The notes under the pieces: model-generated | What the model was told of the DNA's origin: nothing | The model's database searches: none | The model's input: the letters and a program-made list of their open reading frames with translations, nothing else | Assembly: GCA_043757865.1 (NCBI GenBank) | Contig: JAYVOP010000254.1 | Coordinates: 1 to 55,140 of the forward strand | Source of the DNA: Verrucomicrobiales bacterium | GTDB lineage: Bacteria > Verrucomicrobiota > Verrucomicrobiia > Verrucomicrobiales > V1-33 | Reading direction: 5' to 3' | DNA length: 55,140 nucleotides | Shown here: positions 1 through 8,577 of the stretch, piece by piece | Numbering within the stretch: position 1 is the stretch's first letter | Layout: each line of letters starts with the position of its first letter | Translations under genes and position numbers: made by a program

Positions 1-1762
1 CTTCATCTCCCTCGTCTGCGACCAAAAGACCAACCGCAACAAAAAGGACAACCACGGCATCCGCCCCCTGCCCAATCTGGAAACCAAGTTCGTCGCCGCA
101 GACACCCTCATCGGCCTGCCGGAGATGACCCAATCCCTGCTCGTCGATCCCCGCGTCGGCCTCATCGAGAAGGAGATCGAATCTCTCTACCACAGCCACT
201 TCTCCGAGCAGAACCGCACCAGAAAACTAACCAATCAGCGCAAGGTCAAAACCCTCCGGCAGGAACTGGGAAAACTCCTCGCCGAAAGCCTCATGGCTCC
301 AAAAAAGGCGAAGCATGTCGCCGAGTGGGATCCATTTGATCCGCAATCTTGCGCCGACTTCTTCGATCCGCACTGGATGTTTGGACAAGTGCTTGCAGAT
401 GGTTTCGATATAGTAATCGCCAATCCGCCGTATCTATTTTTAAGCGGGAAAGGTAGTCTTGTCCAAAAGCTGGCCAAAGAGGGCAAGCAACAACAGGCAG
501 AAAGGTTGAAAGCATATTTTGATCTGGTTGCAGACCGCCTGCCCCGTTCGTCAGAGGGTTGCAGGGACTACTACAAATGGTTCATTGACAGAGGTCTTAG
601 TTTACTTACGCCAGAAGGCGTCCTAGCCTACATTACGCCCAACACTTTTCTGACATTGAATAGGTATGCGGATGTCAGAAAGCTGCTTTTCGAGAATGCC
701 CTGTCCCGCTCAAACATCATTGATTTAGGATTTGATGTCTTTGAGGTGCCGATTGTCCCTTCAGCAATAACTGTAATTCAGAGAAAATCCGGTAAGGAGG
801 GTAAGTCAGCGATCAAATTTGCTGACTTGAAGCAAACGGAAGGCATATTCAAGTCCACTGAGGCTATTCAATCCGCTGTGACAGAGGGATCGATTGAGGT
901 CGCTTATAAAGACACTCAGTTGCTTTTGTTCAAACATCCATTGGCTGAGTCTATCTATCTCAACGCATCAAAATCTGGCATTCACTACTTCAAAGCCAAG
1001 GAGGGAGAACACGGCTTGGATATGAGTAGATTGCTGGCGAGCACAGCCACTTCACGAGGTGTAGTTCCTGTTGTGATTGATTCAGAACTGTCGCGATTTG
1101 TGTTCTGTCGCGAAGGCTCAGTTCCTGTAGATGCTTGCCCTAGGTTCGACTCGGATTTGCACAGCGGGCGCAGAATGTTCATCCGAAAGACTGGAGACAG
1201 TATAGTGTGTGGATTTCCTAACGGCGAACATACCGCAGTCGCCCACCAAAATGTTTACGTGGTAAAAGCGCACGACCAACGGTTGCACTGGACGGTTTCG
1301 GCAATCCTCAACTCGTCGGTTGCAACATTCTTATACCGCTGCGGTATCCACGGCCAAAAAGGCAGAATCATGGCTCAATTTCGAGTTCATGCCTTAGAGG
1401 CAATTCCATTCCCTGCCGAGCTACGCCCAAGTCAAGCTACGCTGTTTGCCTGCATTGTGCCACAGTTTCGGGTCGCAACACCAGCCGAGCGAGCCTTCCT
1501 CGAAGACCTCATCGACGCCTGCGTGATGGAGTGTTACTTCCGCGAGCACATGGCGGAGCGGGACCTGCTCTTTCACGACACCCTTGCGCCCCACCTCGCC
1601 GCCTACGCCCCCGAGGCCAGCGAAGCGCAGCAGCGCGACTTCCTCACCCACCTCCACCAGACGCTCAACGCCCCCAGCCACCCCATCCGCAACCGCCTCC
1701 TCCGCCTCACCGCCGACAGCCCCGACCTCCTCGCCGTCATCAAACAGGAGGGCCGCGTATGA
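1..1762 (+). CDS. Type IIG (Eco57I-like) restriction-modification enzyme / N6-adenine DNA methyltransferase with C-terminal target recognition domain; 5'-partial
   Basis: The frame is open from base 2 (FISLVCDQ...RPLPNLETKFVAADTL), so the gene starts upstream of the window. It contains the amino-MTase motif IV GFDIVIANPPY, GVLAYITPNTFL, and a TaqI_C-like TRD (IRKTG...AILNS). No endonuclease domain is visible within the window. Confidence 0.88.
   Translation, partial: FISLVCDQKTNRNKKDNHGIRPLPNLETKFVAADTLIGLPEMTQSLLVDPRVGLIEKEIESLYHSHFSEQNRTRKLTNQRKVKTLRQELGKLLAESLMAPKKAKHVAEWDPFDPQSCADFFDPHWMFGQVLADGFDIVIANPPYLFLSGKGSLVQKLAKEGKQQQAERLKAYFDLVADRLPRSSEGCRDYYKWFIDRGLSLLTPEGVLAYITPNTFLTLNRYADVRKLLFENALSRSNIIDLGFDVFEVPIVPSAITVIQRKSGKEGKSAIKFADLKQTEGIFKSTEAIQSAVTEGSIEVAYKDTQLLLFKHPLAESIYLNASKSGIHYFKAKEGEHGLDMSRLLASTATSRGVVPVVIDSELSRFVFCREGSVPVDACPRFDSDLHSGRRMFIRKTGDSIVCGFPNGEHTAVAHQNVYVVKAHDQRLHWTVSAILNSSVATFLYRCGIHGQKGRIMAQFRVHALEAIPFPAELRPSQATLFACIVPQFRVATPAERAFLEDLIDACVMECYFREHMAERDLLFHDTLAPHLAAYAPEASEAQQRDFLTHLHQTLNAPSHPIRNRLLRLTADSPDLLAVIKQEGRV
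1554..1762 (+). repeat. Direct repeat copy 1 = 3' end of the R-M gene (ERDLLFHDTLAPHL...IKQEGRV*), including AGGAGG and an ATGA stop/start overlap
   Basis: Aligns by eye with 3452-3635 and 3894-4141. Confidence 0.95.
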
Positions 1763-3447
1763 AATCCCGTCTCCACAAAATCGAGATCACCAACTTCAAA
1801 GCCTTCCGCCAGTTCACCCTCCCGCTCGAAGGCCGCCACCTCCTCGTTTACGGCGACAACGGAGCCGGCAAATCCTCCCTCTATTGGTCACTCTACACGT
1901 TTCTACAAAGCGCCCGAAAACCGACATTAGGGGATGCCGGAATCGCAAAATATTTCGATCCCGCAGTTCTGCAAAATCTGCTCAACACTCACGAGCAAAC
2001 GGAACCAAACCCACGGCCCAGCGAGATCGCTGTGACGTTGCGTGATATGGCGACGAAGACCGATACCACCTATCGGATCGGAAGGGATTTAAGCGGGCAA
2101 ACCATCCATGGCACGCAACAGCAGCCGGCCATCCTAAAAGGTGACCTCGCCAGCGACTTCATCACTTATCGCTTCTTCTTTGGCTTTTCCCATTTCCGCA
2201 ATTCTAAAGAACTGAATCTCTGGCCGCTATTCGAGGAAGAAATCCTACCGTTCTGCGTATCGACAGGAGGAAAAGTTCCTTTGGAGAGCTGGCAAGCCAT
2301 CAAATCAGAAAGCCCGAATCCCGGTGCATATAAAGGATTGGCGGGAACATACGCCTACGACCGCTTTATCGCGGACACGCAAGCCTTTGCCGGAATCCTC
2401 CCAGGTATCGTGGATGGAATCAGCGCCGAGGCCCAGCGCTTCTACGACAAGCACTTTGCCGCTGACGACAAGGCGAAAATAACGCTCAAGCTTGGGGTCA
2501 CAAAGCTCCCATCCTACGACTTCGATTCGCGGACCTTCACAAAGCCTGAAATCAAATTTGGGATCCAAATTCCGGGGAAAAACATCACTCGCCCGCAGAG
2601 CTTCTTGAATGAAGCGAAGCTGACCCAACTCGCGCTCTCCGTCCGCTTCGCTGCCTCGCTGGTTAACCTGCACGAGTCCGATCTCAAGCTCCTCGTTCTC
2701 GACGATCTTCTCGTGAGCCTCGACATGAGCAACCGGATGAAGGTCGTCGAGATCCTCCTCACTGACGCCGCTTTGGCCAACTATCAAAAGGTCATCCTCA
2801 CCCACGATCTCGGCTTCTTCCGGGAGTTCCGCCGCACCATTGGGCCGAGCCATCCCGATTGGTCCTTCATTCGCTTGGTGGGTGACCCGAAAACCACCAT
2901 CACCTGCCAGAGCGAGAAGACCGAGCTGCAAAAAGCCGAAGAACATCTTCACGGTCGCTGTCTGGACGAAGCCGCCATTTGTCTCCGTAAAGCCGCTGAA
3001 GACATGGCCAAACGTTACCGCGAATGGGCGACAAGCACGAAGCTACCTCCCGGAGAGTTCTTCACGCTCACCGAGAACCTCCGCGCCGCAAAAAACAAAC
3101 TGCTGGAGAAGATTCCAACTCAACTTTACGACCGTGTTCTCAACGGCACACCTGCAGCACACCGGGACCACCTCATGCCCGCTGGCGACGACGACATTGA
3201 CGCACTCTCCGGCCTCAACGTTGCCGACCGTGGCAAGCTCAAGAGTTCGCGAAAGCACCTGCGCTCTCTCCTCAAAGACGAGAACTGGAAAGTGATGGAG
3301 AACATCAAGCTGATCGACCAAGTCCTCAATACCACCGAGCGCGTCCTCAACCCCGGAGCCCACGGCAGCGATGCCCCGCTTTACGAACACGAAGTCCAGA
3401 AGGCGCTCGACCTCCTCAAGCAACTCGAAACCGTTTTCGCGGTATGA
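1759..3447 (+). CDS. ABC/SMC-type ATPase with probable C-terminal HEPN nuclease domain (RloC/PrrC-like)
   Basis: The ATG at 1759 overlaps the R-M stop, with AGGAGG at 1746-1751. Motifs: KIEITNFKAF, Walker A GDNGAGKSS, signature-like FLNEAKL, Walker B LLVLDD, H-loop ILTHD, and C-terminal AAICLRKAAE...RVLNPGAH (Rx6H). Confidence 0.8.
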   Translation: MKSRLHKIEITNFKAFRQFTLPLEGRHLLVYGDNGAGKSSLYWSLYTFLQSARKPTLGDAGIAKYFDPAVLQNLLNTHEQTEPNPRPSEIAVTLRDMATKTDTTYRIGRDLSGQTIHGTQQQPAILKGDLASDFITYRFFFGFSHFRNSKELNLWPLFEEEILPFCVSTGGKVPLESWQAIKSESPNPGAYKGLAGTYAYDRFIADTQAFAGILPGIVDGISAEAQRFYDKHFAADDKAKITLKLGVTKLPSYDFDSRTFTKPEIKFGIQIPGKNITRPQSFLNEAKLTQLALSVRFAASLVNLHESDLKLLVLDDLLVSLDMSNRMKVVEILLTDAALANYQKVILTHDLGFFREFRRTIGPSHPDWSFIRLVGDPKTTITCQSEKTELQKAEEHLHGRCLDEAAICLRKAAEDMAKRYREWATSTKLPPGEFFTLTENLRAAKNKLLEKIPTQLYDRVLNGTPAAHRDHLMPAGDDDIDALSGLNVADRGKLKSSRKHLRSLLKDENWKVMENIKLIDQVLNTTERVLNPGAHGSDAPLYEHEVQKALDLLKQLETVFAV

Positions 3448-3635
3448 GCCCCACTCTTGCGCCCCACCTCGCCGCCTACGCCCCCGAGGCCAGCGAAGCG
3501 CAGCAGCGCGACTTCCTCACGCACCTCCACCAGACCCTCAACGCCCCCAACCACCCCATCCGCAACCGCCTCCTCCCCCTCACCGCCGACAGCCCGGACC
3601 TCCTCGCCATCATCAAACAGGAGGGCAAGGTATGA
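3444..3635 (+). CDS. 63-aa ORF near-identical to the C-terminal segment of the R-M enzyme (gene fragment or stand-alone mini-protein)
   Basis: The ATG overlaps the ATPase stop (ATGA). The peptide TLAPHLAAYAPEASE...IKQEGKV matches the R-M C-terminus. Confidence 0.45.
   Translation: MSPTLAPHLAAYAPEASEAQQRDFLTHLHQTLNAPNHPIRNRLLPLTADSPDLLAIIKQEGKV
3452..3635 (+). repeat. Direct repeat copy 2 of the R-M 3' end
   Basis: 184 bp ungapped match to 1579-1762; 10 mismatches by manual count. Confidence 0.95.
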
Positions 3636-3693
3636 ATCGAAATCGCCATCGTAGAAGGGTCGGCCAAATGAGCACCCGCGCTTCACACGTCTT

Positions 3694-3886
3694 GAGGGCC
3701 AAAGGCCCGGCCCCATACCAGCCCAGGGCAACGCCCTGGGTTACCCGTCGCAAAAATGACCCAAGCCCTGAAAGGGCGACCCAACCGCCGCGCCCGGCCA
3801 TGTCCCGCCCCTTCAGGGCTAGATCGGAACGGAACCCGAAACCCAGGGCGTTGCCCTGGGCTGGCATGGCCCGCACCGTTGGTGCT
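3694..3886. repeat. REP/REPIN-like nested palindromic element
   Basis: Outer inverted repeat 3713-3742 / 3840-3869 (29/30), each arm carrying the hairpin CCCAGGGC-N3-GCCCTGGG. Inner inverted repeat 3764-3778 / 3806-3820 (AGCCCTGAAAGGGCG, 14/15). Extra hairpin GGGCC-AAA-GGCCC. Confidence 0.8.
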
Positions 3887-3893
3887 GAAAACC

Positions 3894-4141
3894 CGGAGCG
3901 CGACCTGCTCTTTCACGACACCCTCGCGCCCCACCTCTCCAATGTGGAGCAGACATTCCTGTCTGCTTCCGCTTCCTCCTCAAACACAGACAAGAAGTCT
4001 GTGCCACCTTCCTCACCTTCCTCACCCACCTCCACCAGACCCTCAACGCCCCCAGCCACCCCATCCTTTCTCGCCCTCCTTCGCCTCACCGCCGACAGCC
4101 CCGACCTCCTCGCCATCATCAAACAGGAGGGCCGGGTGTAA
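3894..4141 (+). repeat. Direct repeat copy 3 of the R-M 3' end, interrupted by a REP doublet
   Basis: Matches 1554-1597 and then 1640-1762; 42 bp of copy 1 are replaced by 80 bp (3938-4017). Confidence 0.92.
3944..4007. repeat. REP doublet of a second family (GTGG-hairpin ... hairpin-CCAC)
   Basis: GTGG+AGCAGACA-TTCC-TGTCTGCT (3944-3967) facing CACAGAC-AAGAA-GTCTGTG+CCAC (3985-4007). Confidence 0.75.
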
Positions 4142-4151
4142 CTTTCAAATA

Positions 4152-4187
4152 TGCCATCATTGACGCAATGCTGGCACTGCTTACATT
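4152..4187 (+). promoter_or_regulatory. Putative sigma70 promoter and operator of the TA operon (probably leaderless)
   Basis: TTGACG (4160-4165), 16 bp spacer, TACATT (4182-4187), ending 6 bp before ATG 4194. Near-palindrome GCAATGC-TG-GCACTGC in the spacer; TGCCATCA at 4152-4159. Confidence 0.55.
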
Positions 4188-4193
4188 TTTGGA

Positions 4194-4454
4194 ATGAGCA
4201 CGACCTTAACGATTCGAAATCTTCCCCAGCCCGTGAAACAAAAGCTGCGGATGCACGCCGCGATCCATGGCCGCTCGATGGAGGCAGAGGCTCGGGACAT
4301 TCTCACCCGCTTCGTGGATGGCGAAAAAATCCTACCCCCACGGACTCCCGAAGAAATGCGAGAGCGTCTGCTCGCTGTCACAGGGATTTGGAAAGATCGA
4401 GCCGAAGGGAAAAGCACGGATGAGATTATGAAGGAACTCCGGGGCGATGACTGA
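4194..4454 (+). CDS. FitA/StbC-like ribbon-helix-helix antitoxin
   Basis: LTIRNLPQPVKQKLRMHAAIHGRSMEAEARDIL is a typical FitA/Arc RHH sequence; the gene overlaps a PIN gene. Confidence 0.88.
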   Translation: MSTTLTIRNLPQPVKQKLRMHAAIHGRSMEAEARDILTRFVDGEKILPPRTPEEMRERLLAVTGIWKDRAEGKSTDEIMKELRGDD

Positions 4455-4848
4455 TTTCGTCCTGGTCGATACAAACATTGTCCTTGATGTGACCAAGGCC
4501 GATCCCGACTGGCTGGGTTGGTCTCGCGATCAGATGGGCCAGTATCCGGGCCGGTTGGTTATCAATCCCCTCATTTATGCAGAACTCTGCCATCAGGCTG
4601 AACCAATTGAGGCTGTAGAATCCATGGTCGCCACGCTGGGTTTAGATTTCAGGGATTTGCCGAGGGAGGCTCTCTTTTTGGCAGCCAAGTCGTATAAAAT
4701 TTATCGGCAACGAGGCGGGACGAAGTCCGCACCACTGGCTGACTTTTTTATCGGCGCACACGCTCAGGCGGAAGGCTTTACCTTGCTGACGCGCGACCCA
4801 ACCCGCTACCAAACTTATTTCCCTGCCGTTTCACTCATTTGCCCATGA
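4447..4848 (+). CDS. VapC/PIN-domain toxin
   Basis: VLVDTNIVLD, IYAEL, ADFFIGAHA and LLTRD PIN motifs are intact. Confidence 0.92.
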   Translation: MTDFVLVDTNIVLDVTKADPDWLGWSRDQMGQYPGRLVINPLIYAELCHQAEPIEAVESMVATLGLDFRDLPREALFLAAKSYKIYRQRGGTKSAPLADFFIGAHAQAEGFTLLTRDPTRYQTYFPAVSLICP

Positions 4849-4940
4849 ACAACGAAATCCCCCTCCTTTGGAGCCAAGAAGCAAACCGCCGAGCGCAAGA
4901 CGGGCGCGCGCGATGGGAAGAAGTGCTGATTTAGGGGAGC

Positions 4941-5759
4941 CTAGCGGGGGACGATCTCCACCACCAGCGCAGTCAGATTATCCTCCCCGCCACGGTAAAG
5001 CGCTTCCTCCATCAGCGCAGGCGTCAGCAATTCCACGTCGGGCGCAGCCATTTGCAGGGCGAGATCGTGATCCCACATGCCATCGTTGACCCCATCCGTG
5101 CAGAGCAGGAAGCGATCCCCCGCAGAATATGACAGGGACGTGAGCTGTGGGTCCATGAACTGCGCCCCTGCGCCTAGCACCTTTTGCAGAATGTTCCGCT
5201 GCGGGTGCCGCCGCGCCTCCGGCTCGGTTAGGGTGCCCTGCCGCCGCATCCAGCCCACATAAGTATGGTCCACCGTGAGCTGCGTCAGGGCCCCCGCCTG
5301 CGGCAAATGATAAATGCGGCTGTCCCCCACATGGGCTAGGTAAAGCGCGTCCGGCGTGATCCATCCCAGGCTCAGCGTAGCGCCCATGCCCGCACATTCG
5401 GGGTAATGCCGCCCATAGCTAACCATGTCTGCATGGATGCGTTTAAAGAGATTCTCTAACACGGTCAGATACTGGCTAGCGTCCGTGCTACTGGGCCGCC
5501 GAAAGGCGGGCGGGATCATCTGTGCAATGCGATCCATGGCGATCCGGCTGGCGAATTCCCCAGAGTTCGCCCCGCCCATGCCATCGCTCACCGCAAAGAG
5601 GAAATCTTGCTGCACCCGCTCGGCGGTTCCCGTTTTGCCCAGGAACCGCAGCCCTTCGGCATCAAAGGCTAACGCCAGAAACGTGTCCTCATTGTTTGGC
5701 CGATACCTGCCGGGATGCGTCAGGCCAGACCAACGGAGCTGGGGGTGGGGAGCGGTCAT
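4941..5759 (-). CDS. PP2C/PPM-family Ser/Thr protein phosphatase
   Basis: GRYRPNNED, AVSDGMGG, MGATL, HVGDSRIY, LLCTDG, GGEDNLT. Confidence 0.93.
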   Translation of the reverse strand: MTAPHPQLRWSGLTHPGRYRPNNEDTFLALAFDAEGLRFLGKTGTAERVQQDFLFAVSDGMGGANSGEFASRIAMDRIAQMIPPAFRRPSSTDASQYLTVLENLFKRIHADMVSYGRHYPECAGMGATLSLGWITPDALYLAHVGDSRIYHLPQAGALTQLTVDHTYVGWMRRQGTLTEPEARRHPQRNILQKVLGAGAQFMDPQLTSLSYSAGDRFLLCTDGVNDGMWDHDLALQMAAPDVELLTPALMEEALYRGGEDNLTALVVEIVPR

Positions 5760-6136
5760 GCGGGCTCTAGAATCGTGGCTAGTTCAAAGTCGATCACACA
5801 GAAGCGGCCATCGCGATGACGGTAAGTCACATTTCTGGTGAAAGGATCATCATGCCGCACGCCAAACTGCTCCACCTCCGCAAACAACTCCACGAGCCGA
5901 TCCTCCGAGATCCGTTCCACCCGCGCCCCGCAGTTCGTGGTCACGAGCCGCAGTTCCTCGGGAAATGTTTCTAACACGCGGGGCACGAAGCCACAGCCCC
6001 GCTCCTCCAGATAGCGCAGCACGCGCACCTCATTCTCAAAGCGCTCCCGCGCCTCATGCCCCCGAAACGTCTTATACACCCGTCCATCGTAACCAATGCG
6101 AACCAGCGAGCGGGCAGTATCTTTAATCTCATGCAT
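5756..6136 (-). CDS. Small (126 aa) protein kinase-like protein
   Basis: VYK, ENEVRVL, HDDPFTRN (HxDxxxxN) and IDFE motifs. Start moved to MHEIKD; 4-bp overlap with the phosphatase gene. Confidence 0.75.
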   Translation of the reverse strand: MHEIKDTARSLVRIGYDGRVYKTFRGHEARERFENEVRVLRYLEERGCGFVPRVLETFPEELRLVTTNCGARVERISEDRLVELFAEVEQFGVRHDDPFTRNVTYRHRDGRFCVIDFELATILEPA

Positions 6137-6140
6137 GGGG

Positions 6141-7502
6141 TTAGCGCGTCGCGCGCTTGGCCTCGATGGCATTGCGCAGGCTTTGCAATTCCGGCAGTTG
6201 GCGATTCACCTGGGCCGCCTCTGCCGCCATGGCTTCCGCGCCCGGGAGATCGCCACTGGCTAAACGATGTTTCCCGACCATCACCTTTAAATAGGGATCG
6301 CCACCGATCTCCGCATCCGCCTTCAGCAGCGCAGGTTCGATGGCCTCTGGGTGCTCTAACTTAGCCTCAACCTCCGCCAGCAGATTACCCGTCACGATCT
6401 GATTCGTCCCCAACGCTGCACTCCACGTCGGCTGAATCGTCAGTTGTTGTTTGAAATTCTCTAACTCCGTGGGGGAAATGATGCCGTCGATCAATTTCTG
6501 ATAGGCGTGAATTGCCACGTCATAGGCGAAGGGCGAATTCCGCACAGAATCCGGCAGTTCCCGCAAGTCTTGCAGCACGTGGGGCTTGTTCAGCACCTCG
6601 CTGGGGATCATGTTTTTGATGGCCAGGATTTGCTCCTTTGTGAGGTCCTCGCCAAACACCGCTTTCCAAGGACGATTGGCCTCGTTGGCTGTGGGCAGCT
6701 CCATAATCACCTCCCGCCGCACCCAATCACTTGCAAACATCCCCCGCTGACAATCCCAGATGTCTGCCACCTGCCACTGCCCTTCCACGGGCACTACGAG
6801 CAAATCAAAATAACTCACCCGCCCTGGTTTGACCATCGTCCGCAGCAGCAACGCTGGATACCCCGCGCGCGTCCGCAGCTTTACGAACTGACAGTCCACC
6901 CGCTCCAGATCACTGCCCAGAATCTGCCGAAACAGCCCCGGAATATCCGCCGTCCAGTGGGCGCGGATCCCATCCCGGATCACGGTGCTTTCGTGCAATC
7001 CTAACTCCATGTTTTGGCACACGCGGTAGATCACCTCTGGCCACACCACGCGGCGTTGCAGCTCTGCCTTACTGCCTTCCTGCAACTCCGTAGCGATCTG
7101 CTTGCCCAGTGCTAACAACGGCTTTTCCTGCTCCTTTTCTACCTGCACCGCCGGGTAGGGATCGTATTGCACATCGATCTTATCCACGAACAACTTCTGC
7201 ACGAAGAAATACACCAGCATCACGGGCAGCCCCAGCCCTACGGCCCAGATCCCCAGATTAGCCCAAGGGTTAGGGGCGCGCGGATCACGCTTCCGTGGGG
7301 GCTTCCCGGTGCCCTTATATTTATCTCCCACCTTCGTCTTCTTGGGGGCTTGCACGCGGGTATAGCCAGCGGGGGGCTGTCCGCCTAACGGCTCGGCGGC
7401 ATAGTCCTCCTCCAGCATTTCCTCATCGTAAAATTCAGGGTCATGCGCGGGATCAGAGTCAGGTGGTGGATTCATAAAAATAGGCCCAGAGTCTGTGGAC
7501 AC
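6141..7502 (-). CDS. Hypothetical single-pass membrane protein with acidic disordered N-terminus and TPR-like C-terminal helices
   Basis: Long ORF with one TM segment (LGIWAVGLGLPVMLVYFFV). The start may be the ATG at 7475. Confidence 0.7.
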   Translation of the reverse strand: MSTDSGPIFMNPPPDSDPAHDPEFYDEEMLEEDYAAEPLGGQPPAGYTRVQAPKKTKVGDKYKGTGKPPRKRDPRAPNPWANLGIWAVGLGLPVMLVYFFVQKLFVDKIDVQYDPYPAVQVEKEQEKPLLALGKQIATELQEGSKAELQRRVVWPEVIYRVCQNMELGLHESTVIRDGIRAHWTADIPGLFRQILGSDLERVDCQFVKLRTRAGYPALLLRTMVKPGRVSYFDLLVVPVEGQWQVADIWDCQRGMFASDWVRREVIMELPTANEANRPWKAVFGEDLTKEQILAIKNMIPSEVLNKPHVLQDLRELPDSVRNSPFAYDVAIHAYQKLIDGIISPTELENFKQQLTIQPTWSAALGTNQIVTGNLLAEVEAKLEHPEAIEPALLKADAEIGGDPYLKVMVGKHRLASGDLPGAEAMAAEAAQVNRQLPELQSLRNAIEAKRATR

Positions 7503-7638
7503 TCAGCCCACAGGCCAAGTGAAATCTCACCTCCAGAGCGATGAATTTTGCCCGGCGTGCGGGTCGGCCTTGCAGGCCTTCCGGGATGCACTACAGCACG
7601 CGTGCCCCCCTCGCCTCACTCATTCTTGCTCCATCCCT

Positions 7639-8577
7639 GTGCCCCGTTCCCTCCTCTTCTTCTTGGTGCTGCTCCTTTGCCAATGCACGACTGTGAAAAA
7701 ATCTCCTAGCCAACTCACTCCGTCCACGTTCACCGCCACGGACGGCAAGACCATGCCCTACACCCGCTGGCCAGAGGCGGCTCAGCCCGCTCCCGCCCCG
7801 CCCCGCGCCATCTTCCTCTGCGTCCATGGGCTCAGCGGAGCAGCTAGTGATTTCTGGCCCGCTGGGGAAATGCTCTCCACGCAGCAGTGCCTCGTCTATG
7901 GCCTGCAACTCCGGGGCATGGGCAATGATCCCACCGTGTCCCAACGCGGCAACATTTCCTCTGCCCGTCGTTGGCAAAAAGACTTGCTAGAGTTCACCCA
8001 ACTCGTCCACCTCCAGCACCCCGGCGTGCCCATCTATTGGTATGGAGAAAGCCTCGGCTCACTGATCGTCATCCACTCGCTCGCCCGCCTGGAAGAAGGC
8101 TCGCAGCTCGTCGCAGGGGTCATTCTTTCCTCCCCCGTCATCGCCTTTCGCCAAGCTCTCCCGGCATGGAAATACTGGCCCATCCGCCTCGCCTGCACCC
8201 TCCTGCCTAGCAAACGCATCAGTCTGGAAAGCCTGGGCGATGCCGAGGTCAAAGTCACCAATACCGCCACCCACAAAGAACAGATGTCCCACACTGCGCA
8301 CTACGTGGAGTTCTTCACCCTGCGCCTCTTCCGAGCCGTGGAGGAAATGATCCGCCACAGCCCGCAGGCCGCCACGCAGATCCACCAGCCCACATTGGTC
8401 TTCTATACGCCGAACGATGTCTTTACCTCCGCCGCCCAAGTGGAAACTTTCTATAACCAAATGCCCGCCCTGGATAAACAGAAGGTGATCTACCCGCACA
8501 GCTACCACCTCATCCTGCATGATGTGGATCGCCCCCACGTGCTAGAGGCGCTGGAGGCTTGGCTGAAGACGCATTGA
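7639..8577 (+). CDS. Alpha/beta hydrolase (lysophospholipase/monoglyceride lipase-like), probable lipoprotein
   Basis: VHGLSG, GESLG nucleophile elbow, ND, HLILH; signal-like LLFFLVLLLCQC. Start set at GTG 7639. Confidence 0.82.
   Translation: MPRSLLFFLVLLLCQCTTVKKSPSQLTPSTFTATDGKTMPYTRWPEAAQPAPAPPRAIFLCVHGLSGAASDFWPAGEMLSTQQCLVYGLQLRGMGNDPTVSQRGNISSARRWQKDLLEFTQLVHLQHPGVPIYWYGESLGSLIVIHSLARLEEGSQLVAGVILSSPVIAFRQALPAWKYWPIRLACTLLPSKRISLESLGDAEVKVTNTATHKEQMSHTAHYVEFFTLRLFRAVEEMIRHSPQAATQIHQPTLVFYTPNDVFTSAAQVETFYNQMPALDKQKVIYPHSYHLILHDVDRPHVLEALEAWLKTH

Follow-up and report, generated by a model that had tools for sequence, protein, structure and literature searches.

How does the end of one gene come to be repeated along a bacterial defense locus, with something different behind each copy? 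The question is raised by the left end of a 55,140-nucleotide (nt) contig of a Verrucomicrobiales bacterium (GenBank assembly GCA_043757865.1, contig JAYVOP010000254.1; the window hereafter means this whole stretch, whose positions we use), where the last codons of a gene for an Eco57I-type methylase with a target recognition domain (TRD) occur three times, with an ATPase gene and a REPIN-like element between the copies and, after them, a toxin–antitoxin (TA) pair. A first, sequence-only reading of the locus had seen in it a cassette-like array, in which the conserved end of a restriction–modification (R-M) gene, here called the tail, serves as a homology anchor for defense cargo. The part of this proposal that stands is that the tail is a discrete conserved block with its own history, found in arrays at about 16 loci, and our preferred answer, at a probability of roughly 0.55, is that these are orphan-module arrays built up as modules were replaced, added, and deleted in succession, the tail serving as shared homology.

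A repeat finder run on the window and a search of the whole 402-contig genome both returned the three direct copies that had been reported, and the genome search found no tail copies beyond four matching stretches, all on the window contig. Copy 1 (1554-1762, plus strand) is the end of the 5'-open reading frame (ORF) at 2-1762 and belongs to a longer conserved block (1484-1762, plus strand; residues 495-586, from FLEDLID to the stop). Copy 2 (3452-3635, plus strand) covers 184 nt at 95% identity to copy 1 without gaps, corresponds to residues 527-586, and lies in an orphan ORF of 63 codons (3444-3635, plus strand) whose ATG overlaps the stop of the ATPase gene. Copy 3 (3894-4141, plus strand) is a broken orphan that matches in two blocks (3894-3940 at 94% and 4017-4137 at 92%), carries a 76-nt insert (3941-4016) with two small hairpins, undergoes two frame changes, and terminates in GTGTAA. 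Copies 1 and 2 do differ at 10 of 184 positions with no indels, as claimed; the description of these changes as mostly synonymous or conservative fits four synonymous codons and the S/N, V/I, and R/K replacements (R/K alone accounts for three of the ten differences), but not the fourth replacement, R/P, which is nonconservative.

Both of these copies terminate in AGGAGG-N7-ATGA, which in copy 1 (1746-1762, plus strand) forms a Shine-Dalgarno sequence (SD) and a stop/start overlap coupling the ATPase gene to the methylase gene. So strong an SD looks unusual for this genome, judging from the window: under a crude first-start model, a 5-mer SD stands at -18 to -5 in 3 of 41 long ORFs, which lends crude support to the statement that SDs are scarce in the region, and 14 of the 41 start over a TGA. 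That the repeat would supply an SD and an ATG to the next gene is right for copy 1 and the ATPase gene but wrong for copy 2, whose ATGA leads into no gene, just an 11-codon remnant and the REPIN-like element. The remnant (3636-3671, plus strand; 'IEIAIVEGSAK*' by translation, directly after the copy 2 stop) derives from the ordinary ...LYGLTPEEIAIVEG 3' end of a second, related kind of methylase gene; fuller versions of it stand beside tails in loci L105, L079, L101, L076, and L104, and in L083, L153, and L160 it is a true gene end.

What the locus looks like when intact can be read from relatives. The window opens inside the methylase/TRD gene ("type IIG-like"), of which the last 586 codons are present (2-1762, plus strand; 5' end cut by the contig start). 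This fragment matches Pfam Eco57I (6e-17), TaqI_C (2.6e-4), and N6_Mtase and aligns to residues 668-1295 of a 1295-residue protein of genome G115, in which Eco57I and TaqI_C share one chain (PADLOC REase_MTase_IIG, 5e-122), that is, the type IIG combination of a gamma-class N6-adenine methylase with a TaqI_C-type TRD in a single polypeptide. The full-length relative matches no Pfam nuclease family, and a PLD-SNF2 protein encoded 5' of the methylase gene may supply cleavage. In G115 (a complete genome) and G266 the operon runs from a 1113-residue PLD-SNF2 helicase (PADLOC HKD+Snf2, 5.5e-122) through the 1295-residue methylase to a 557-residue ATPase, which starts at the same ATGA overlap and is 64% identical to the window ATPase. 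An intact operon is also present in L086, a record labeled as the isolate Verrucomicrobium sp. BvORR106. Since the homologue occupies the same ATGA in intact operons, the window ATPase is the normal third gene of the operon, and the idea that it was captured cargo does not hold. On our best reading, the window therefore holds the 3' part of a defense operon that encodes a PLD-SNF2 helicase, an Eco57I-type methylase/TRD protein, and an ABC-ATPase with a HEPN-like end, and the SD-ATGA of copy 1 is the plain coupling junction of the methylase and ATPase genes. With the queries used, neither the first 667 or so methylase codons nor the helicase partner was found in this metagenome-assembled genome (MAG), which is 90% complete.

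The ATPase gene itself (1759-3447, plus strand) encodes an ABC/SMC-type ATPase by Pfam (SMC_N 1.7e-11, AAA_15 5.5e-8), the ABC/SMC-type part being N-terminal, with an all-helical, HEPN-like C-terminal domain in a PrrC/RloC-like architecture. Its sole sequence match in the PDB is Rad50, and its likeness to AAA_13 falls below the Pfam cut-off (26 versus 36 bits). In the C-terminal domain, R528-x6-H535 is invariant in all eight homologues, as is N531, and the domain model is all-helical with a pLDDT of 82. A Foldseek search with this model gave no PDB match at E <= 0.001; the second-ranked hit, 2q00_A, is weak (E 0.28, prob 0.98, TM 0.54 by target) and is among the HEPN family structures listed in PMC3710099. 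The model of the whole ATPase has a low pLDDT (64.6). Taken together, the predicted "ATPase-HEPN" identity is plausible. Homologues were absent from the 60 nearest genomes and were found in wider sampling, where the ATPase start again falls on the ATG of the tail.

The behavior of the tail in other genomes is what turns a local curiosity into a recurrent pattern. A search with the tail protein found it in 17 of 401 genomes of the order, G000 itself included, and a degenerate 35-nt pattern from the tail end retrieved 38 loci in genome_contigs, nearly all from Verrucomicrobiota MAGs, and 72 in metagenome_contigs. We mapped these 110 loci and the window by tblastn with reference proteins taken from the loci (107 sources with at least one match), reduced 117 tail 3' ends to 97 by removing near-identical records, and took as follower a gene within 60 nt. 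Far from showing a single fixed arrangement, these mostly verrucomicrobial loci have variable cargo behind the tail, as had been predicted: at least 12 gene families besides the ATPase follow it, diverse defense and TA genes among them, many at the same ATGA, which straddles the tail stop at 54 of the 97 ends (GTGA, TTGA, or CTGA at 16 more). The ATPase is the commonest follower (18 tail ends), and the others are a DinD/Bro-N-like protein (PADLOC PDC-S13; 12), RhuM (5), a DUF4258/DUF2283 TA pair (4), AAA_21 ATPases (4), an unknown protein of about 190 residues (3), a second methylase end remnant (3), two unknown proteins and a DUF3800-like protein (2 each), and FitA (1), with nothing from the reference set behind 36 tail ends and the contig ending at 5.

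Arrays of tail, cargo, and tail, with at least two separated tails, occur at about 16 distinct loci, which is a lower bound given that many contigs are short: the window, L079, L084, L087, L103, L111, L112, L115/L166, L118, L120, L131, L133/L176, L146, L156, L161/L173, and L163. Their contents differ from one to the next. L146 has three tails followed by three different genes (a 325-residue gene, a DinD-like gene, and a 265-residue gene); L115/L166 has a tail, a DUF3800-like gene, a second tail, and the 325-residue gene; L112 leads from an intact methylase tail to DUF4258/DUF2283 and then from another tail to RhuM; in L156, tails alternate with RhuM; and L079 reads REP-tail (REP, repetitive extragenic palindrome), DUF4258/DUF2283, tail, and 3' part of a type I HsdR gene. 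L120 shows a junction of ATPase stop, ATGA, and 'MS(P/Q)TLAPHL' identical in kind to the one at 3444 in the window. The same modules recur at different positions, namely tail plus DUF4258/DUF2283 in L079, L087, L112, and L160, RhuM at five nonredundant ends, and the tail plus c325 and tail plus c265 modules in L115/L166, L146, and L102.

The tail also differs from its own gene in how it has diverged. Among 11 intact genes, including that of the window, conservation over the C-terminal 530 residues is by far the highest in the last 95 or so codons, with a mean nucleotide identity of 0.78 in the tail versus 0.40-0.53 upstream. For identical residues that have at least four codons, the share encoded by the same codon, over 21 pairs from 7 loci, is 0.60 in the tail (0.58 once the stretch used as search pattern is left out) and 0.47 in the first 60 ATPase codons, compared with 0.25 in the methylase domain, 0.25 in the TRD, and 0.30 in the rest of the ATPase. 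Over the pairs, identity in the tail is not linked to identity in the methylase domain, the TRD, or the ATPase body (rho -0.21, -0.56, and -0.10), so that the window and L072, for instance, share a tail identity of 0.91 and a TRD identity of 0.32. This low synonymous divergence and the lack of a link with the flanks suggest that tails share a more recent ancestry than the genes around them, which is what recombination at the edges of the block would give. Moreover, tails that share an array usually have their nearest relatives elsewhere (the L146_122 tail, for one, is closer to 77 of 112 outside copies than to its sisters), which points to separate acquisitions.

On this basis, we infer the following course of events. 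Copies 2 and 3 would be orphan tails left by previous occupants of the locus: new modules made of methylase, tail, and accessory gene would have arrived on top of or beside older ones, and illegitimate joins and deletions would have removed the older gene bodies, leaving their 3' ends with whatever came next. With one and the same tail in every module, homologous recombination of the RecA type could then act between tails to add, remove, and reshuffle tail-plus-gene modules within and between genomes, with no dedicated recombinase involved. A bolder version, which we put forward tentatively and with the odds against it, would make the tail of about 280 bp a portable adaptor that combines a homology arm with SD-ATGA ribosome loading and builds recombinase-free cassette arrays in verrucomicrobial defense loci, tail–tail recombination storing, exchanging, and switching the accessory effector (ABC-HEPN ATPase, RhuM, DinD-like proteins, TA pairs, and others) coupled to the restriction system.

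Several observations count against this account. In the homology-anchor proposal, cargo could be added or looped out by recombination; the contig-level data that we used (Logan contigs, from four runs of one study that is possibly the source sample) yield no direct evidence for ongoing tail–tail recombination and no sign of loop-out between tails at the depth of the organism. In the window, copy 2 is closest to copy 1 (96% over 174 nt, with 1 of 112 outside copies closer), so that duplication in place or gene conversion is as likely for this copy as separate acquisition. Constraint at the DNA level, or the way in which loci were found (all were picked through the 35-nt pattern within the tail), could likewise account for the low synonymous divergence of the tail, and the 21 pairs, drawn from just 7 loci, are not independent of one another. 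A good many of the loci lie on short contigs, and several records appear twice, in two collections. Finally, many stand-alone tail ORFs are intact; the tail may therefore act in its own right, as a peptide or a leader ORF, a role for which the preferred account has no need. The joints seen in the Logan contigs were discounted in view of depths far above that of the organism or sides of 20-36 nt: those at 1572>3534 and 3681>1495 have depths of 77-160 versus about 15 for the organism and so belong to other community members.

The explanation that comes closest to the preferred one, albeit an unlikely one in our judgment, is that the tails are passive scars, dead 3' ends of methylase genes since replaced or deleted, surviving as harmless promoterless fragments with no part in exchange. 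Decay is indeed widespread. Copy 3 is frameshifted and carries insertions; orphan tails start anywhere from residue 474 to residue 567, with frameshifts or invading mini-elements (REP-like or AT-rich palindromic) in many of them; and the dN/dS ratio, 0.48 in stand-alone tails versus 0.27 in fused ones, indicates relaxed constraint. Nor are such remnants peculiar to this gene end, the second methylase end being one example. In L072 (flipped), a second ATPase allele has left a 45-codon 3' remnant (3945-4073) 20 nt behind the intact ATPase gene, a scar of the same kind from another gene; 3' remnants of type I HsdR genes occur in L079 and L163; and in L118, about codon 120 of an ATPase gene is fused in frame to the second methylase gene end, followed by a tail ORF, a deletion scar between two formerly tandem systems. 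Decay alone, however, would leave unexplained the lower synonymous divergence of the tail relative to its own gene, the return of the same cargo families behind tails in differing orders and contexts, and the arrays themselves. In the preferred account, for which the deletion scars of L118 and L072 also speak, scars and exchange would go together: the scattered starts and the decay fit illegitimate joins and general homologous recombination rather than recombination at a defined site.

Some details of these remnants may be recorded here. The orphan tails of L071, L088, L092, and L146 contain inserted AT-rich palindromic mini-elements of the 'GGATGAAGGATGAA...' type, which lie also in the spacers behind the tails of L024, L050, and L051. 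The first part of the copy 3 insert, S(N/S)VEQTFLSASAS, is found in frame within the intact methylase gene of G003 (L024, G003:C52, about 3420-3460), related strings occur in other frames of that gene, and the hairpin motif of the insert, searched as a genome-wide repeat, is single-copy in this genome; an insert-free form of the tail is present in the same metagenomes (joint 3937>4014). In L145 and L150, a gene for a 565-residue AAA_21/AAA_15 ATPase stands between the first 609 or so methylase codons and a stand-alone tail, and it seems to have replaced the C-terminal half of the methylase together with the TRD.

A second alternative, which we hold to be doubtful, is that selection keeps the tail as a functional unit, either a protein or domain of about 94-115 residues that may be fused or free, or a leader ORF for the coupled gene. 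The 56 complete tails (FLEDLID to stop) comprise 28 stand-alone ones, 21 fused to a long methylase ORF, and 7 touching a contig end. In L083 (2042-2424), L153 (1586-1968), L160 (flipped; 2570-2958), and L118, the tail is a separate ORF of about 94 residues whose ATG overlaps the stop of an ordinary methylase gene ending in '...LYGLTPEEIAxxE..AK*'. Consistent with a free protein, 439 clusters of proteins of 51-165 residues match the tail ORF, and among the 120 clusters listed most cover at least 90% of the query, with 94 and 115 residues as recurring lengths; the dN/dS of stand-alone tails, albeit raised, is still below 1, and ATGA is retained at more than half of the tail ends. Against this, a protein database lists called ORFs alone, in which broken copies are invisible, whereas many orphans are truncated or frameshifted in the loci that we mapped; in the window itself, the first third of the block is missing from copy 2, whose ATGA opens no gene, and copy 3 is broken. 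Neither Pfam nor PADLOC gave a match for the tail, and a dN/dS below 1 can be inherited from time spent within working genes.

Much less probable than either is site-specific capture, in which an unrecognized recombinase, or a Y1 transposase/REP machinery, would insert promoterless ORFs at the tail or its ATGA. It would account for cargo ORFs abutting tails at ATGA on both sides (the window, L115, L146, L103) and for the REP-like elements that join the tail at one position, just before the ERDLLFH codons (residue 519), at 10-11 of 61 motif occurrences in several genomes (window 3680-3893, L079, L020, L021, L059, L060 of G006, L076/L127/L141/L152, and L172), a junction due either to a REP-tail block that these loci have in common or to preferential insertion at this point. 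IS200-like Y1 transposase genes, moreover, adjoin tails in L058 of G160 (7585-8037, directly behind the tail) and in L100 (444-1532, inside a truncated ATPase gene). However, the ATGA at the 3' ends of cargo genes is the native coupling junction of those genes in intact operons, so that boundaries precise to the ORF need no special insertion machinery; the left ends of tails vary widely; and no inverted repeat was found inside the tails, the sole inverted repeat reported in 1554-4141 being the REPIN-like pair. The earlier statement that the window holds no integrase was correct: the genome has seven matches to the tyrosine recombinase family PF00589, all on contigs other than C254 (the region upstream of the window being unassembled), and a profile search gave two weak Y1_Tnp matches, both likewise on other contigs. 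Given the variable tail starts, the decay, and the lack of a recombinase match on the contig, site-specific, integron-like capture is not supported, and the likeness to integrons is architectural only.

The REPIN-like element of the window (3680-3893, no strand assigned) has 30-nt inverted arms (3713-3742 and 3840-3869) that are 97% complementary and form a long hairpin, with a predicted DNA fold of -68.9 kcal/mol (z = -9.0). It is about 92% identical to the element of L079 (265-470), with the same junction to the tail, which common descent of the REP-tail block could explain. Only two other sites in the genome match it, at 70-80%, but its summed depth in the metagenome contigs is very high.

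That an assembler strung together strain variants of one tail is as hard to sustain, for although the tail recurs throughout the community (its contig depth sums to 136-336 versus about 15 for unique sequence), the REPIN-like region reaches 6000-8000, and the contig starts inside the methylase gene, single contigs from a different assembler span both junctions of the ATPase gene without a difference, the ATPase-to-tail junction recurs in the unrelated metagenome contig L120, and the order of remnant, REP, and tail recurs in the independent record L079. More precisely, when Logan contigs were placed on 1-6000, single contigs covered 1713-3485, 1842-3626, and 1842-3520 with no difference, from which it follows that both junctions of the ATPase gene with a tail are real, that copy 1, the ATPase gene, and copy 2 are bridged, and that these junctions are not a collapse of variants. 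The stretch 3626-4103 is covered by short contigs alone, owing to the depth of the REP-like element, and the linkage of copy 2, REP, and copy 3 rests on the original assembler. The summed depth over 1-200 is 98-129 versus about 14 further in; the conserved methylase core is common to other community members and probably broke the assembly at the contig start.

The last module of the window array is the TA pair, a gene for a FitA-like ribbon-helix-helix antitoxin (4194-4454, plus strand; Pfam FitA-like_RHH 7e-18) that overlaps by 8 nt (4447-4454) a PIN/VapC-like toxin gene (4447-4848, plus strand; Pfam PIN 1e-9), the layout of FitAB/VapBC pairs. It is not translationally coupled to the tail, the pair starting 53 nt past copy 3; a homologous FitA/PIN pair adjoins a tail in L094. 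No promoter was found inside the tails (one sigma-70-like site, at 4160-4187, versus 0.8 expected by chance), and no known RNA family came near its gathering score in 1300-5000, where two matches (E 0.46 and 0.89) lie on the opposite strand. On the 3' side of the pair and outside the array, the minus strand (4941-7502) carries a PP2C-type phosphatase gene (4941-5759), a short APH/kinase-like ORF (5756-6172), and a further ORF of 453 residues with no Pfam match.

The closest precedent lies in toxin systems. Orphan cdiA-CT/cdiI and Rhs-CT/rhsI arrays, of contact-dependent inhibition (CDI) and Rhs systems, respectively, consist of a full-length main gene followed by an array of its own 3' fragments, and recombination in a conserved block has been proposed to load an orphan onto the main gene (Poole et al. 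2011, PMC3150448). As far as that account of the orphans goes, the loci described here are alike in that fragments from the 3' end of the main gene stand behind it (copies 2 and 3, and the other array loci), each keeping a variable amount of the conserved block and followed by a small partner gene, that the same modules lie at different positions in different strains, and that insertion sequences or repeat elements are interspersed. They differ in that the block of CDI/Rhs genes lies upstream of a variable toxin domain in the same protein, whereas here it is the very end of the gene, ATGA-coupled to a separate one; the main gene encodes a restriction-type DNA methylase/TRD protein and not a secreted toxin; and the cargo is a mixture of separate, unrelated defense, TA, and ATPase genes rather than a polymorphic toxin domain with its cognate immunity gene. 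In the lpl cluster of S. aureus, a conserved intragenic nucleotide stretch is the site of homologous recombination (Tsuru and Kobayashi 2008, PMC2568036), and the co-inherited unit, as presented there, is likewise the 3' part of one ORF with the start of the next; lpl units are, however, whole paralogues of one family, whereas here the 3' block alone is repeated, with unrelated genes in between. ABC-ATPase-HEPN proteins are frequent in R-M operons, with RhuM-like genes nearby (Anantharaman et al. 2013, PMC3710099), and the window ATPase resembles PrrC/RloC, to the extent that these are covered there, in its ABC-type ATPase, its C-terminal helical domain with R-x6-H, and its place inside a restriction-type operon, RhuM being among the followers of tails; unlike in PrrC/RloC, its partners are an Eco57I-type methylase and a PLD-SNF2 helicase instead of a type I system, and the HEPN fold match is weak. 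An integron, for its part, is also an array of mostly promoterless ORFs with a repeated element between them, read from one end, but here there is no IntI beside the array (as far as the PF00589 search reaches, upstream sequence being unassembled), no attI, and no structured attC or defined crossover point, and the repeat is coding, with variable 5' limits and many decaying copies.

A 2024 bioRxiv study on accessory genes embedded in defense systems is said to describe a variable accessory gene at a fixed slot of a multi-gene operon, and a study on the movement of TRDs and domains in R-M genes reportedly describes TRDs exchanged between conserved flanks; neither, as far as we know, describes tandem orphan 3' ends with a coupling signal. 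Likewise, our term searches of the open-access literature, supplements excluded, brought up no account of R-M genes whose 3' ends occur as tandem orphans carrying accessory genes, which is not proof of absence. To our knowledge, the gain and shuffling of genes in defense islands is largely unexplained outside hotspots in phages, satellites, and integrons.

Against this background, the end of a methylase gene recurs as a linker, with its own coupling signal, between a limited set of accessory defense and TA genes on more than 100 contigs of one phylum. If the tails are mere scars, the locus still documents clearly how restriction modules replaced one another in series, and it would warn that "cassette-like" repeats can arise with no capture machinery. 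If recombination between tails is active, it would let a restriction system stack and switch the second-line effectors behind it in a simple, recombinase-free manner and would extend the orphan-module principle of CDI/Rhs toxins to antiphage defense. Were the tail, as the bolder version has it, a portable adaptor, these verrucomicrobial loci would be the defense-gene counterpart of orphan toxin arrays, driven by general recombination.

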